Source of the DNA: Dehalococcoidia bacterium
Lineage (GTDB): Bacteria; Chloroflexota; Dehalococcoidia; UBA2979
Direction: 5' to 3'
Assembly: GCA_963694535.1 (NCBI GenBank)
Contig: CAVODE010000002.1
Span: 1-52,844 of the forward strand
Length of the DNA stretch: 52,844 bases
Shown: positions 3,456 through 19,316 of the stretch, piece after piece
How positions within the stretch are numbered: position 1 is the stretch's first letter
How the letters are laid out: each line of letters begins with the position of its first letter
Translations under genes and position numbers: made by a program
The notes under the pieces: model-generated
What the model saw: the letters and a program-made list of their open reading frames with translations, nothing else
Told to the model about the DNA's origin: nothing
The model's database searches: none

Positions 3456-3532
3456 GGTGGGTGTGGCCTAATGGTTAAGGCTCCAGGTTGTGGTCCCGGC
3501 GATTGTGGGTTCGAATCCCATCACCCACCCCA
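3456..3532 (+). tRNA. tRNA-His (anticodon GUG)
   Basis: Folded by hand. G-1 at 3456 is opposite discriminator C 3529. The acceptor stem is GTGGGTG/CACCCAC and the D stem is GCCT/AGGC. The anticodon stem is CCAGG/CCCGG with one A-C mismatch, and the loop TTGTGGT carries GTG at 3490-3492. The T arm is GTGGG-TTCGAAT-CCCAT. CCA is encoded at 3530-3532. Confidence 0.9.
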
Positions 3533-3575: not shown

Positions 3576-4124
3576 ATGATCGGTAGTTCCCGCACAAACC
3601 TTGTCGCAAGCATGCTCATATTCACACTTGTATCTCATTCCTTTATCATCGGGTCATCGCTGCTATTGGCTACTCTCTTCACACGGATCGAACATGTAGT
3701 CCTATACGTGAGCGTGCTATTTTCTCTCACCCTTGGCATCCAAATTTGGGAAGAATCAAAAAAGAAATTAACCCGCCTGAGCGTGGTGTATTACGATGGG
3801 GACTGCCGATTTTGTGTTTGCACACTAAAAATACTATCAACGATCTTCAGATTCAAACACGTACGGTTCGTAAGAGGCGATTCTGATCCAAAGATTAACT
3901 CCGAAATGAATAATGAAAATTCCTGGCTCGTCCAAGATAGCAATGGTAGTTTTAATCTTCGCTCTGCCGGATTAATAGAATTACTAAAAACATCTCACTA
4001 TCTCTTTGGTACGACACGCTTGCTTGACTTTGCTACACGCGTGCTAGAGAAGCCATTAGATAGGCTGTATAACCTGATTGCCGAAAATAGAGCATTTCTG
4101 TCAAAAATGATATCCTGCAAATAG
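3576..4124 (+). CDS. DCC-family thiol-disulfide oxidoreductase (DUF393) with N-terminal hydrophobic extension
   Basis: VVYYDGDCRFCVCTLK carries the D-x-x-C-x-x-C signature of the DCC family. The first ~60 aa are two hydrophobic segments. A shorter product starting at the GTG codons just before YYDG is possible. Confidence 0.6.
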   Translation: MIGSSRTNLVASMLIFTLVSHSFIIGSSLLLATLFTRIEHVVLYVSVLFSLTLGIQIWEESKKKLTRLSVVYYDGDCRFCVCTLKILSTIFRFKHVRFVRGDSDPKINSEMNNENSWLVQDSNGSFNLRSAGLIELLKTSHYLFGTTRLLDFATRVLEKPLDRLYNLIAENRAFLSKMISCK

Positions 4125-15038: not shown

Positions 15039-16721
15039 GTGGAACAGCCCATTTTATACCCCGAAAATTTACTCTTGTATGACACAACTCTCCGCGACGG
15101 TCTTGGTATGGAAGGTCTTTCCCTATCCCTGGAAGACAAACTAGAAATTACGCGAAAACTAGATGCACTGGGAGTGCATTACATCGAAGGTGGGTTTCCC
15201 GGCTCAAACCCAAAAGATGCTGAATTTTTTACGAAAGCAAAATTCCTAGACCTAAAGCATGCAAAATTATGTGCGTTTGGATCAACACGCAAACCGGGAG
15301 GAGACGTAAAAAGTGATCCTGCCATCAAAGCAGTGCTTGCGGCCGAAACACCTGTGATTACGCTAGTGGGTAAATCCTCACTTAGCCAAGTGACTGATGT
15401 GCTACAAACGACTGACGAAGAAAATTTGTCAATGATAAAAGAGTCTATAGCGGAATGTGTCTCGGCGGGTAAAGAGGTTGTCTTCGATGCTGAACACTTT
15501 TTTGACGGCTATCTTCAGAACAGTGATTATGCAATTCGTACTTTAAAAGCAGCCCTCTCCGGCGGCGCGTCCACGCTCACACTGTGTGATACAAATGGTG
15601 GAAATCTTCCTTGGCAAATAGAAGAGGTAGTAAGATCTGTGAAAGTGTTTATCGTCGAGCAAGGGCTCGAGAATGTCCGAATAGGAATACATGCTCACAA
15701 CGATACAGATAATGCCGTTGCGAACACACTCGTCGCAATCCGTGCTGGAGCCGATCACGTGCAAGCATGTCTTAATGGTTGGGGAGAAAGAACTGGCAAC
15801 GCAAATATAATTTCGGTTATCGCAAATCTCAAATTAAAACTTAAGATCGACGTTATCAGTGATGATCAATTGAAATTATTGACCCAAACAGCAGCTCTTG
15901 CCCAAGAGCTTGCCAATCTCCAACAAGATCCCCAACAGCCGTATGTGGGAACTGGCGCCTTCGCTCACAAAGCCGGTTTACATGCTGCCGCAATAGTTAG
16001 GTCTCCTGGCTCGTACACACATATAAATCCCAGCGCTGTTGGCAACAGTGAACGAGTGCTGGTATCTGAAATATCTGGACGCCGAAGTATATTGCAAAAA
16101 TTGAAAGAGCAAGGAAGTACTTTAGAGCTTTCTGATTCGGATGCTGAAAAAGTACTATCCCGAATCAAGGCGAGAGAAGCACAAGGTTCAGCTTTTGAGG
16201 CGGCGGAGGCATCTTTCGAAATGGTTGCACGTCGCACACTGAGCACATTCTCGCCGGCCTTCATTCTCGAAGATTTCGTAATTGTCGAGAGACGCAGACC
16301 GGACTCAGACCGTTATGTCGGAGCAAAGCCACGGTCAGTAAAAGATGATTCTACTGATACGGCTGAATCGGCATTTTCATATAACGACATGCAAGCGGAG
16401 GCAATGATCAAAATACGCGTTGATAATAAACTGACCCAAGTCGCCGCGGATGGTAACGGTCCGGTGTCTGCAATGGACGCGGCCGTGAGAAAAGCCCTTA
16501 CCGAGACTTATCCCGGAATCGCAAAAGTCCATCTCACAGATTATAAAGTACGGATCATAGACTCAAAAGCAGGCGCCGATGCAGCCGTCAGAGTGCTAGT
16601 TGAATCCAGCGATGGCAACAGTAGGTGGCGTACCGTTGGGGCCTCAACTGATGTAATTGAGGCATCTTGGCTTGCGCTCCAAGATGCGTACGAATACTGG
16701 ATTATCCATAATTTGAAGTAA
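15039..16721 (+). CDS. cimA: Citramalate synthase (long, LeuA-dimerisation-domain type)
   Basis: LYDTTLRDG, YIEGGFPGSNPKD, DAEHFFDGY, LCDTNGG, HAHNDTDNAVANTL, NGWGERTGNANI and GNGPVSAMDAAVRKAL resemble the TIGR00977-type CimA (Geobacter-like) more than LeuA. GTG start. Confidence 0.8.
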   Translation: MEQPILYPENLLLYDTTLRDGLGMEGLSLSLEDKLEITRKLDALGVHYIEGGFPGSNPKDAEFFTKAKFLDLKHAKLCAFGSTRKPGGDVKSDPAIKAVLAAETPVITLVGKSSLSQVTDVLQTTDEENLSMIKESIAECVSAGKEVVFDAEHFFDGYLQNSDYAIRTLKAALSGGASTLTLCDTNGGNLPWQIEEVVRSVKVFIVEQGLENVRIGIHAHNDTDNAVANTLVAIRAGADHVQACLNGWGERTGNANIISVIANLKLKLKIDVISDDQLKLLTQTAALAQELANLQQDPQQPYVGTGAFAHKAGLHAAAIVRSPGSYTHINPSAVGNSERVLVSEISGRRSILQKLKEQGSTLELSDSDAEKVLSRIKAREAQGSAFEAAEASFEMVARRTLSTFSPAFILEDFVIVERRRPDSDRYVGAKPRSVKDDSTDTAESAFSYNDMQAEAMIKIRVDNKLTQVAADGNGPVSAMDAAVRKALTETYPGIAKVHLTDYKVRIIDSKAGADAAVRVLVESSDGNSRWRTVGASTDVIEASWLALQDAYEYWIIHNLK

Positions 16722-16858
16722 TCATCTCGATTTCAGCGCAAAACTCTCAGGCATGTGTTAAAACAGCCGTATTACTTTGCTATGAAACACACCATAGAAC
16801 GAACAACGGTCTCATTGAAAGGCCGTGAAAGTCAGTGGTGCGGATATACGAAGTTTAC

Positions 16859-17080
16859 TTAGAGTCGAAGCTTACCGTGTGAAGGTTGGCGGCGGCGCTG
16901 TTTACCAGCGGCAAGCTGCTCTTCCTTTTCGATATCAGCTGGATCACAACGCTCCTGCTCGTGCACGTAGCCACAAGCTACACACGATCCAAAAACACCG
17001 TACCAGTCATCTTCTATAATCATCATGCCCTCACAACGGGGACATCTTCTAGGTGGGGTACTCACAATTGGCATGCCCAT
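16859..17080 (-). CDS. Small zinc-ribbon protein (73 aa) with basic C-terminal tail
   Basis: CPRC-x19-CVAC zinc ribbon. A strong SD (GGAGG) lies 3 nt before the ATG. The gene has its own promoter and a long structured leader. Confidence 0.5.
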   Translation of the reverse strand: MGMPIVSTPPRRCPRCEGMMIIEDDWYGVFGSCVACGYVHEQERCDPADIEKEEQLAAGKQRRRQPSHGKLRL

Positions 17081-17262
17081 CTACCTCCGGATCCAAAACT
17101 ACCCAGCAAGCTGGGAAAAACGCTGATCCGGGCGCCGCCGAGGTTAGCTGTCGGGTTCGGGCTGATCAGAAAAAGCCCGTCTTGAATAGGCTTACGCCTT
17201 TCCAAGATTCACCCCATAGTTGGTTCCCCCGGGTTCCTTAAAAGGAAATTAGGCGGCCACTA
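17081..17262 (-). promoter_or_regulatory. Structured 5' leader / candidate riboswitch upstream of the zinc-ribbon ORF (class unassigned; loose cobalamin-like motifs)
   Basis: Minus-strand RNA. A closing helix pairs GCCGCC (17252-17257) with GGCGGC (17134-17139) and encloses about 112 nt with internal hairpins. CCGGAUC (17125-17131) can pair with GAUCCGG (17087-17093), which overlaps the SD. The hairpin CCCAGC/GCUGGG (17102-17115) is followed by UAGUUUUGG. Motifs GGGGGAACC, GGGGUGAAUC and AGCCCGAACCCGAC are reminiscent of cobalamin riboswitch core/B12 box, but the CCCGC-ACUGU and GCCACUG elements are missing. Confidence 0.35.
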
Positions 17263-17279
17263 GAGTTGTGACAGTTCTC

Positions 17280-17308
17280 AAGATAGATAAAATTGACAGA
17301 TTTGTCAA
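17280..17308 (-). promoter_or_regulatory. Sigma70-like promoter for the leader/zinc-ribbon transcript
   Basis: On the minus strand: TTGACA (17303-17308), a 17-nt spacer, then TATCTT (17280-17285). It overlaps a TTGACA-gatt-TGTCAA inverted repeat shared with the divergent cobT side. Confidence 0.4.
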
Positions 17309-17397
17309 GTATATTTGGAAACAAAATTATCATTGCTGTAAAGTCATAACTATACGCTCCAGTCACAAACATCCTATCTTGAGGTAGAGCCTAGATA

Positions 17398-18531
17398 ATG
17401 AATTCACAACAATTGATTAATAACACCATCAAAACAATTGCATCCTTGGAGGTTCCACATCAACAATCTATAGACGTCGTAGCTCAGAGACAGTCGCAGC
17501 TCACAAAGCCCAAGGGTGCTCTTGGAAAGTTAGAAATTCTTCCTGAATTTATAGCTGGTGTCGCCGCGGTGCCAAACCCAGCTCTCCATCGAAAAACTAT
17601 AGTGATTGCTGCTGCTGACCACGGAGTAACTGAAGAAGAAGTATCCGCTTACCCTAAGGAAGTTACTGAGCAAATGGTAAAAAACTTCCTTCGAGGCGGA
17701 GCCGCTATAAACGTTCTCGCCCGTAATTTTAAAATCGACGTAATAGTGATAGATGCAGGAATCAGTATTTCCTCACCTATCCAAGGATCATTAATTCAGT
17801 CCAGTTTAGGCAAAGGAACAGAGAATATCGCTATTGGTCCTGCAATGAGTTACGACAAGGCCACCGAGACCATAACCAGAGGAATAGAAATTTTCAATGA
17901 GGCACATTCTAAGAATCCGATCGACATAATTGGTCTTGGCGAAATGGGAATTGGTAACACTACATCTGCGGCTGCACTGATCGCTGCTATAAGTCGACGA
18001 AAACCATCAACTGTAGTGGGTTTGGGTACAGGTATTAGTGCATCTCAGTTCGAACGGAAGATCGCTGTGATCGAACGAGCGCTAGACGTAAATATAAATG
18101 CCATCAAGGATGCTTATCAAATGAACGGCCCGGAAAAGGCTATAGCTTTTCTTGCAGCATTAGGCGGATTTGAAATTGGTATACTCACCGGAATTGCCTT
18201 AGGAGCAGCGGCCAAGCGAGTACCAATCATAATCGACGGTGTGATTTCAGGAACTGCCGTGCTATTGGCGAGCCTAGCCACACCCTACCTGAAGAAATTT
18301 ACAATTCCTAGTCATATGTCTCCTGAACCAGGTCACAGGGTCGTACTCGATATGCTTGATAGTAGAGATCCGTTGCTAGACCTAGAAATGCGCCTTGGAG
18401 AAGGATCTGGGGCAGCACTTGCCATTAATCTTTGCGATATAGCTTGCCAATTACTCACCGATATGGCAACGTTCGAAGAGGCAGCTGTAAGTACCATAGC
18501 TCCTATTCGTAAAATAGAGGGATGCAAATGA
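17398..18531 (+). CDS. cobT: Nicotinate-nucleotide--dimethylbenzimidazole phosphoribosyltransferase
   Basis: LTKPKGALGKLE, AADHGV, GEMGIGNTTSAAAL and EMRLGEGSGAALA are hallmark CobT motifs. Confidence 0.9.
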   Translation: MNSQQLINNTIKTIASLEVPHQQSIDVVAQRQSQLTKPKGALGKLEILPEFIAGVAAVPNPALHRKTIVIAAADHGVTEEEVSAYPKEVTEQMVKNFLRGGAAINVLARNFKIDVIVIDAGISISSPIQGSLIQSSLGKGTENIAIGPAMSYDKATETITRGIEIFNEAHSKNPIDIIGLGEMGIGNTTSAAALIAAISRRKPSTVVGLGTGISASQFERKIAVIERALDVNINAIKDAYQMNGPEKAIAFLAALGGFEIGILTGIALGAAAKRVPIIIDGVISGTAVLLASLATPYLKKFTIPSHMSPEPGHRVVLDMLDSRDPLLDLEMRLGEGSGAALAINLCDIACQLLTDMATFEEAAVSTIAPIRKIEGCK

Positions 18532-19316
18532 ATGTCACACTGCGAGAGGTACTTAGGTGTCCTCTAATTGCGCTCGAATTTTTAACTATCCTTAGAATTG
18601 CGCGACCCAGAGTCTACGATAATTCTTCATTCGCACGATCTATAAGCTGTTATCCGATTATTGGATTGGGCATTGGCTTGCTTCTGTGGGTTTCAGCAAG
18701 CCTACTTGATCGAATAATTGACCCGGAGATTAACGCTGCTATTCTTCTGATAATTCTGACTCTACTTTCTGGAGGACTTCATCTTGATGGCCTCGCTGAC
18801 ACGGCAGATGGTCTTGCAAGTCAAGGAAGCAAAGCCGATAAACTTGGAATTATGAGTATCGGAAATACAGGTCCGGCGGGAGTTGTGACTCTGGTGCTTA
18901 CACTCCTTCTCCAGTGGGTCGTGCTCGCTGAGATATTACAGCTAGGTGGTGATCTAAGTCGGTCTGCGTTGATCGTCACGCCTATGCTAGGAAGATGGTC
19001 CGTAATTCCAATGGTCGGATTATTTCCGCCAGCCCGGCTAAGTGGTCTCGGTAACTCAATTCAACAAGCATTACTTACAATTCCGATGATAATAGGAACC
19101 CTCGTGGCAATTATTGCATCGGTTTTCATACTGGGACCAATAGGCATTCTCTTCATTTTTATGGCTGGAATAACTTCTATCACCATTGCCTGGCTTTCTT
19201 CCAAACAGTTAGAGGGCATAACGGGTGATATCCTCGGCGCAGGAATAGAACTCTCACAAACGACTGTCTTACTAGCATTTTTAATTGCACCGGGAACTGC
19301 TTTTCTTTTCGCTTAG
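18522..19316 (+). CDS. cobS: Adenosylcobinamide-GDP ribazoletransferase (cobalamin synthase)
   Basis: Polytopic membrane protein with LSGGLHLDGLADTADG and ITGDILGA motifs. It overlaps cobT by 10 nt. Confidence 0.9.
   Translation: MQMNVTLREVLRCPLIALEFLTILRIARPRVYDNSSFARSISCYPIIGLGIGLLLWVSASLLDRIIDPEINAAILLIILTLLSGGLHLDGLADTADGLASQGSKADKLGIMSIGNTGPAGVVTLVLTLLLQWVVLAEILQLGGDLSRSALIVTPMLGRWSVIPMVGLFPPARLSGLGNSIQQALLTIPMIIGTLVAIIASVFILGPIGILFIFMAGITSITIAWLSSKQLEGITGDILGAGIELSQTTVLLAFLIAPGTAFLFA

Follow-up and report, generated by a model that had tools for sequence, protein, structure and literature searches.

A predicted c-di-AMP riboswitch of the ydaO class in the leader of a conserved zinc-ribbon gene of Chloroflexota

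Introduction

Which signal does a structured RNA leader read when it stands between a tiny zinc-ribbon gene and a set of B12 genes, and how could it act on that gene? The question is raised by a 52,844-nt stretch of DNA from a Dehalococcoidia bacterium (phylum Chloroflexota; contig CAVODE010000002.1 of assembly GCA_963694535.1), which is here called the window in its full length. On its minus strand, a small open reading frame (ORF) follows a leader of ~190 nt and lies back-to-back with cobT-cobS. An earlier note, drawn up from the letters alone, had described this leader as riboswitch-like and had likened parts of it to cobalamin riboswitches. Our analysis points instead to a riboswitch for cyclic diadenosine monophosphate (c-di-AMP). 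We consider it quite probable that the leader is an RNA of the ydaO class with a promoter of its own and that it controls, in cis, just one gene, which is Chloroflexota-specific and encodes a zinc-ribbon protein of ~70 residues.

The leader contains a full-length ydaO-class aptamer

A scan of the whole window against Rfam returned a single riboswitch match, to the c-di-AMP (ydaO/yuaA) family RF00379, at 17118-17265 on the minus strand. At 76.5 bits (gathering score 38, E 4e-16), the match spans model positions 1-134 of 134, so that the aptamer is full-length and includes the 3′ pseudoknot tail. The upper-case consensus blocks CGGGGGAACC, GGGGUGAAU, CCCGAACCCG and CAGCUAACC are matched. The motifs GGGGGAACC, GGGGUGAAUC and AGCCCGAACCCGAC, which had been read as B12-box-like elements, are conserved core blocks of the ydaO consensus. 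The sole further gathering-level Rfam match in the window is a tRNA gene at 3457-3529 on the plus strand.

The helices that define the class and the pseudoknot are present in this leader and covary among its relatives. P1 is formed by GCCGCC at 17257-17252 and GGCGGC at 17139-17134 (these and all following positions of the leader and the ORF are on the minus strand), and its outer pair occurs as UA, CG and AU in the RNAalifold consensus. It corresponds to the 6-bp closing helix proposed before, which is found in the Rfam alignment as well as in the RNAalifold consensus. Of the hairpins proposed within it, UUCC/GGAA is P2, CGGGCU/AGCCCG is P7 and AGGC/GCCU is a small insert hairpin inside the P5 loop; the CCAA/UUGG pairing is absent from the consensus fold, where UCUUG pairs with CAAGA as P5. 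Covariation in orthologous leaders had been suggested as a check, and 17 of the 33 pairs in the consensus fold, which RNAalifold derived from 19 aptamers, carry compensatory double changes.

The P7 hairpin (CGGGC...GCCCG, 17158-17179) exposes the loop CUGAUC (17169-17164) as the 5′ strand of the pseudoknot, which forms 6 bp with GAUCAG at 17123-17128, just 3′ of P1. The duplex between P7 loop and tail averages −9.6 kcal/mol compared to −5.0 for shuffled tails, with 48 of the 75 distinct leaders beating 95% of their shuffles. When the pseudoknot was anchored in register, its covariation reached 4.43 compared to 3.48±0.14 for permuted partners, and none of 2000 partner permutations attained the observed score. 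The first flanking pair of the pseudoknot is seen as A-U, C-G and G-C across the family, and an equivalent pairing, CUCCUUCG/CGAAGGAG, exists in the crystallised sequence of 4QLM (PMC5393176). As judged from its sequence and the covariation of its relatives, the leader is a c-di-AMP riboswitch of the ydaO class, a new member with a previously undescribed regulated gene.

Conservation of the aptamer and its pairing with the small ORF

In all 18 loci that we sampled, the RF00379 aptamer immediately precedes the ORF, at 50-90 bits. From the RF00379 hits in these loci we built our own covariance model (CM R1), with which the window aptamer scores 115.6 bits. Applied to the 80 best relatives, which together with the window make up a close-locus set of 81, CM R1 detected exactly one aptamer per locus, always at E≤6e-19. 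It immediately precedes the ORF in 80 of the 80 relatives, and the distance from the 3′ motif of the aptamer to the CPxC codons of the ORF ranges from 93 to 135 nt. We also analyzed a distant set of four further lineages, whose proteins share 52-57% identity; the aptamer is present in three of them.

The ORF itself (17080-16859) comprises 73 codons from the ATG at 17080 and would encode 71 aa from the ATG at 17074. The second ATG is probably the true start, with a protein beginning MPIVSTPP, since it is spaced by 9 nt rather than 3 from the Shine-Dalgarno (SD) sequence and since the homologues, which begin alike, have 70 aa. The protein carries a C4 zinc ribbon, CPRC...CVAC (codons at 17044-16973), and ends in an invariant basic tail, QRRRQPSHGKLRL (16900-16862). 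In the family alignment, the ribbon (CPRC...CxxCG) is accompanied by ExDWYG and GYVHE motifs, an acidic linker and the tail QRRRQPSHGK[L/I]RL. Searches at E≤1e-3 yielded 110 homologous clusters, which bear no functional names and whose named taxa are all Chloroflexota. The small ORF, which the earlier note had named as the regulated one, is conserved: in a scan of one genome per GTDB species, at least 412 genomes encode a relative, and the best 80 of these at least 412 are all metagenome-assembled genomes of Chloroflexota/Dehalococcoidia. All 81 loci have the identical tail, yet it is encoded by 67 distinct nucleotide sequences in which all synonymous positions vary. Thus the constraint acts on the protein and not on the RNA, and an RNA-level cause of the invariant tail was ruled out. 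The alignments show that the ORF is under protein-level purifying selection and is a real gene.

Promoter and transcription in seawater

Reading along the minus strand, promoter, aptamer, expression platform, SD and ORF follow each other in this order. The near-consensus promoter that had been reported, TTGACA-17-TATCTT, is present as a sigma-70-type promoter at 17280-17308 (−35 box TTGACA at 17308-17303, 17-nt spacer, −10 box TATCTT at 17285-17280). It makes 10 of 12 matches in a promoter scan, and in the six closest loci CTTGACA is invariant while the −10 box keeps TAnnnT at equal spacing. Transcription is predicted to start near 17273. An SD sequence, GGAGG, can be read at 17088-17084. An inverted repeat at the −35 box, TTGACAaatcTGTCAA, was considered as an operator and rejected as a chance occurrence, since its second arm is not conserved in the closest loci.

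The window derives from a marine population, as it is found in seawater metagenomes, and 20 seawater metatranscriptomes contain leader and ORF. We mapped the contigs of 12 of these metatranscriptome runs on 16300-17900. All contigs over the unit fall inside 16513-17259, and 17260-17429 is left uncovered in every run. A flanking gene (cimA or cobT) was assembled in six runs; in five of them the unit has 13-56x and the flanks 2-7x, and in the sixth the values are 10 and 7. The remaining six runs yielded nothing from the locus apart from the small transcript. The unit is thus transcribed as a discrete, abundant RNA in the sea, in agreement with the expectation that the region is expressed.

At their 3′ side the contigs run 63-346 nt beyond the stop codon and define a 3′ untranslated region (UTR) at 16513-16858, with ends at 16513 (two runs), 16570, 16683, 16764-16765, 16785 and 16795-16796. 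This 3′ UTR is antisense to the last ~200 nt of a convergent cimA/leuA-like gene (15039-16721 on the plus strand, stop at 16721). A scan of 16513-16858 found no terminator-like site, which accounts for transcripts running antisense into the end of the cimA/leuA-like gene.

Expression platform and mode of regulation

Between aptamer and ORF, CCGGAUC at 17131-17125 can pair with GAUCCGG at 17093-17087 in an alternative helix. Its 3′ strand overlaps the SD and covers G17088 and G17087, two of the five SD bases. This complementarity had been noticed before, and we find it in the minimum free energy (MFE) fold of the whole leader as well as in that of the platform alone. The 5′ strand of the helix and the pseudoknot tail have GAUC (17128-17125) in common; the alternative helix and the ligand-bound fold are therefore mutually exclusive, a form of competition that riboswitch platforms require. 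The earlier note was right about an SD-proximal helix, but let it form alongside a closed aptamer, as it had overlooked the pseudoknot. Between the two strands of the helix, at 17115-17102, lies a platform hairpin, CCCAG-CUUG-CUGGG, which is followed by UAGUUUUGG and appears as terminator-like in our scan; it had been described with six pairs (CCCAGC/GCUGGG), whereas it has five around a tetraloop.

Helices analogous to the alternative helix occur in relatives of the window. In L012-L019 the pairing is CUGGAUC/GAUUCCAG, with a compensatory change from C-G to U-A relative to the window, and further examples are GGAUCAG/CUGAUCC in L027 and UCUGGAU/AUCCAGA in L055. The hairpin between the two strands is kept in all clades (e.g., L013, ~3975-3990) with differing sequences, mostly as CCGG-NGGGAUN-CCGG. 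In GC-rich clades the sequence of the platform hairpin is conserved as well and preceded by GCCC, and the conserved GGGA loop suggests a role beyond spacing.

Across the family, the tail finds some downstream partner in 56 of 75 leaders, compared to 46.4±4.3 for shuffled tails, a modest enrichment. Locking the tail in the pseudoknot lowers the predicted accessibility of the SD from 0.40 to 0.32 overall, with 21 leaders going down and 10 going up (p=0.03). The effect is pronounced in L012-L019, L016, L039 and L055, in which the unpaired fraction of the SD drops from ~0.7 to ~0.1 because the freed UUCC folds onto GGAG, corresponding to an OFF logic.

Based on these models, control is most likely translational and exerted through competition for the tail. 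Binding of c-di-AMP would stabilize a fold in which P7 loop (17169-17164) and tail (17128-17123) are joined in the pseudoknot. The tail would thereby be withdrawn from the alternative helix (17131-17125/17093-17087), which abuts and partly covers the SD, so that ligand occupancy would alter the structure around the ribosome-binding site, with translation initiation and not intrinsic termination as the regulated step. As to the sign of this control, we lean slightly, and on weak grounds, towards repression by c-di-AMP, since every tested c-di-AMP riboswitch represses, one of them via translation, and since the UUCC/GGAG logic of a well-sampled sister clade points the same way. In the clade of the window, a helix covering two SD bases would argue for activation.

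Observations against the proposed reading and alternative explanations

Several observations weigh against the proposed identity, expression or mechanism of the leader. Nearly all aptamers of the family carry AC or GC as the two nucleotides just 5′ of P7 (~17179-17181 in the window), where the Rfam consensus gives an upper-case UA. The L090/L091 lineage encodes the protein without an aptamer, even when search filters are off, and the association of aptamer and ORF is therefore near-obligate rather than absolute. The metatranscriptome contigs are strandless and of flat depth, so that we infer the minus-strand origin of the RNA, from the contig boundaries, and the lack of premature termination. 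Their 5′ limits at 17253-17259 coincide with the foot of P1 and fall 14-20 nt short of the predicted start site, and in three runs the sequencing adapter is joined at 17253 or 17254; loss of 5′ ends in the libraries, exonucleolytic trimming up to the folded aptamer or another start site could each produce this pattern. With respect to the platform, the duplex between the tail and the region before the SD averages −12.3 kcal/mol compared to −11.4 for shuffles and is significant in 2 of 75 leaders. The position of the tail's downstream partner varies from leader to leader. Locking the tail leaves the predicted SD accessibility of the window unchanged (0.25 and 0.24), and in its closest relatives accessibility rises, with opposite sign to the sister clade. 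A general SD-sequestering helix was accordingly rejected, as the duplexes are no better than shuffles in the 75 leaders and such a helix is clade-specific only; a uniform OFF or ON logic does not emerge from the folding results, which are mixed between clades. As a separate observation, the AC or GC before P7 has a counterpart in the AC that precedes the CGGGGG block of the aptamer's other pseudo-symmetric half.

The deviation before P7 could mark a variant of the ydaO fold that senses another ligand, which would also explain the atypical gene association, the regulated gene being unlike the usual transporter and cell-wall targets (PMC7266159). Against such a change of specificity stand the high RF00379 scores (73-90 bits) and the match of all other upper-case consensus blocks, and we regard it as very improbable. 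We know of no variant class of ydaO. There is next to no chance that the leader is a cobalamin riboswitch that senses a corrinoid and co-regulates the ORF with the divergent cobT-cobS. This idea draws on the back-to-back arrangement and on B12-related genes, by which the ORF is flanked in 74 of 84 related loci; a contig end truncates four of the ten loci that lack them. However, a permissive Rfam scan of 16700-17500 gave no match to cobalamin-clan models (RF00174, RF01482 and RF01689 included) even at E≤10, and the region is fully explained by the full-length RF00379 aptamer. The same search tool detected genuine cobalamin and adenosylcobalamin (AdoCbl) riboswitches in related loci and was thus sensitive enough; there they always form elements of their own, located downstream or on the opposite strand.

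Even if the aptamer is accepted, c-di-AMP could act through premature intrinsic termination at 17115-17102 and UAGUUUUGG, as in the OFF switch of Bacillus subtilis ydaO/kimA. Termination is the best-documented mechanism of the class (PMC9960051), our scan does find a terminator-like site, and L004-L006 have a better stem followed by a U-rich tail. In the window, though, the stem has just five base pairs and is followed by an interrupted U-run, the 3′ part of the aptamer has no evident antiterminator partner, and GC-rich relatives keep the hairpin without a U-tract. Moreover, contigs cross the site into the ORF in 11 of 12 runs, although their flat depth is compatible with partial termination; in run X40 the contig ends at 17115, beside a polymorphic site. 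We thus consider termination unlikely. In the earlier description of the leader as an aptamer with an SD-sequestering or terminator platform, the riboswitch leader with its own promoter holds, while the terminator part is weak. A somewhat better, still doubtful prospect is an ON switch, in which the helix masks part of the SD without ligand and c-di-AMP frees the ribosome-binding site and activates synthesis. It would fit the coverage of G17088 and G17087 of GGAGG by a helix that is the MFE state when the pseudoknot is left out of the model, the rise in SD accessibility from 0.20-0.25 to 0.33-0.53 upon locking the tail in L001 and L004-L006, and the direct pairing of the free tail with the SD region in L031 and L076. 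Conversely, every characterised c-di-AMP riboswitch represses (PMC9960051), more leaders of the family go the opposite way (21 compared to 10), the anti-SD/anti-anti-SD design of the sister clade implies OFF, and only two of five SD bases are covered in the window.

The zinc-ribbon protein

In the AlphaFold (AF2) model of the protein, which has a mean predicted local distance difference test (pLDDT) score of 73.6, residues 10-42 form the ribbon and residues 47-57 a helix, while the tail is disordered. Matches to known ribbons all stay below threshold: Pfam PF08271 (Zn_Ribbon_TF) at 20.7 bits with a cut-off of 29, PF02150 at 20.1 with 25.2, TIGR01384 at 17.7 with 64.75, RPC10 at E 0.024 and, as the best Foldseek match, Thermus ZifS/TTHA0897 (8yoz) at E 0.05. 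As none of these is significant, we draw no functional conclusion from them. PDB searches with the family profile and with the tail segment alone returned nothing significant. As a best guess, the protein would be a soluble adaptor or regulator of small size that uses its invariant basic tail to dock on a conserved partner, possibly with a link to cobamide salvage. We rejected a phage or defence origin, since viral contigs contain no relatives and neither PADLOC nor PHROGs gave a match.

The same zinc ribbon and a RRRQPSHGKLRL-like tail also make up the C-terminus of rare longer proteins (P0120-P0190, 189-736 aa). These metagenomic singletons have in common an N-terminal domain of five helices, with an NPW...LT.L.L motif. 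For one of them, P0153, the N-terminal domain has a confident AF2 model (pLDDT >90) with no significant fold match in the PDB. Assignment of this domain to sigma-70 region 4/LuxR-type helix-turn-helix proteins was not retained, as Pfam gives only E 0.029 for one member. Another, P0161, is labelled Nanoarchaeia, yet its gene lies among RuvC/YebC/MgsA-type genes.

B12 genes in the neighborhood

In the window, cobT-cobS(-cobU) are located divergently upstream of the small ORF, at 17398-19316 on the plus strand. The back-to-back arrangement pointed out before recurs in that B12 genes flank the small ORF in most lineages, as a matter of neighborhood only: a divergent upstream cobT is found in 51 and cobS in 42 of the 80 close relatives. 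The window's own cobT has no cobalamin riboswitch, and in loci without cobT a cobalamin riboswitch precedes a divergent btuFCD-like transporter. Distant lineages have a PduO-type adenosyltransferase and a CobC-like phosphatase, or BtuF/C-like genes. In another distant lineage, that of L090/L091, an AdoCbl riboswitch (RF01482, 60 bits) lies directly downstream of the small ORF, before FecCD-ABC-CobA-CbiZ; here a leader of ~200 nt after a TTGACA-type promoter persists without the aptamer (L090 2760-3424, also L091). Three distant loci carry a second small ORF (71-91 aa, no Pfam match) after the zinc-ribbon gene on the same strand (L084 3379-3654, L086 3357-3617, L088 3605-3820), and a short-chain dehydrogenase gene before the riboswitch, again in the same orientation; the window has neither of the two.

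The B12 association could be inherited synteny; it spans several different architectures and is the sole functional lead. Taken further, the zinc-ribbon protein might be a c-di-AMP-gated effector that ties osmotic and K+ signalling to cobamide salvage in Dehalococcoidia, either as a divergently encoded regulator or as a docking adaptor for the cobTSU or btuFCD operons, and the riboswitch might be a first c-di-AMP ON switch. We offer this combination as a speculation that is probably wrong as a whole.

Discussion

The riboswitch class is well known, and the RNA itself is no surprise. Our analysis provides a confident annotation for a leader that is present in hundreds of uncultured Chloroflexota genomes. 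It also adds a near-obligate member to the c-di-AMP regulon of the phylum, a small protein that had no name before, is strongly conserved and is transcribed at high levels. In the literature available to us, we found no paper that links a c-di-AMP riboswitch to Chloroflexi/Dehalococcoidia or to a zinc-ribbon gene, though the supplements of two primary ydaO surveys may list the association. Corrinoid dependence is ecologically important in the Dehalococcoidia group, and the persistent neighborhood of B12 nucleotide-loop and import genes suggests a testable link between c-di-AMP and cobamide salvage. The invariant 13-residue tail is a handle for finding a binding partner.

Comparison with known systems places both protein and leader. 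The protein shares the three-stranded C4 zinc-ribbon fold with the TFIIB N-ribbon, RPB9/RPC10, archaeal TFS and Thermus ZifS, at the level of sub-threshold matches, but none of these RNA-polymerase-type ribbons has the acidic helix and the invariant QRRRQPSHGKLRL tail. Cobalamin riboswitches (RF00174, RF01482) occupy the same neighborhoods and control adjacent btuFCD-like or cob genes in related loci; they differ from the window leader, which they do not match, in fold and ligand.

The leader is closest to B. subtilis ydaO/kimA (RF00379) and the Thermoanaerobacter RNAs 4QLM/4QLN, with which it has in common the aptamer family, its helices, the pseudoknot between P7 loop and 3′ tail, and the position in the 5′ UTR. 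In contrast to ydaO/kimA, it lacks a convincing intrinsic terminator or antiterminator, its host belongs to the Chloroflexota, and its target is a tiny soluble zinc-ribbon protein instead of a transporter or cell-wall enzyme. The c-di-AMP riboswitches described before control transporters for K+, amino acids and osmoprotectants as well as cell-wall enzymes (PMC7266159, PMC9960051), a range of targets that does not predict a zinc-ribbon protein. The ydaO-type riboswitch of Streptomyces coelicolor rpfA, as summarised in PMC9960051, likewise belongs to a high-GC lineage and has no canonical terminator; it is reported to lower transcript levels of a muralytic enzyme gene. The nearest precedent for the mechanism that we propose is the nlpC riboswitch of Corynebacterium glutamicum, which has no canonical terminator and for which translational control by alternative pairing with an anti-SD-like element has been proposed (PMC9960051). 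Both leaders would thus regulate translation of the first gene by alternative pairing. For the C. glutamicum RNA, the target is a cell-wall peptidase operon and reporters were used to test it, whereas the mechanism in the window is inferred, and in the window's family the pseudoknot tail has different alternative partners in different clades.

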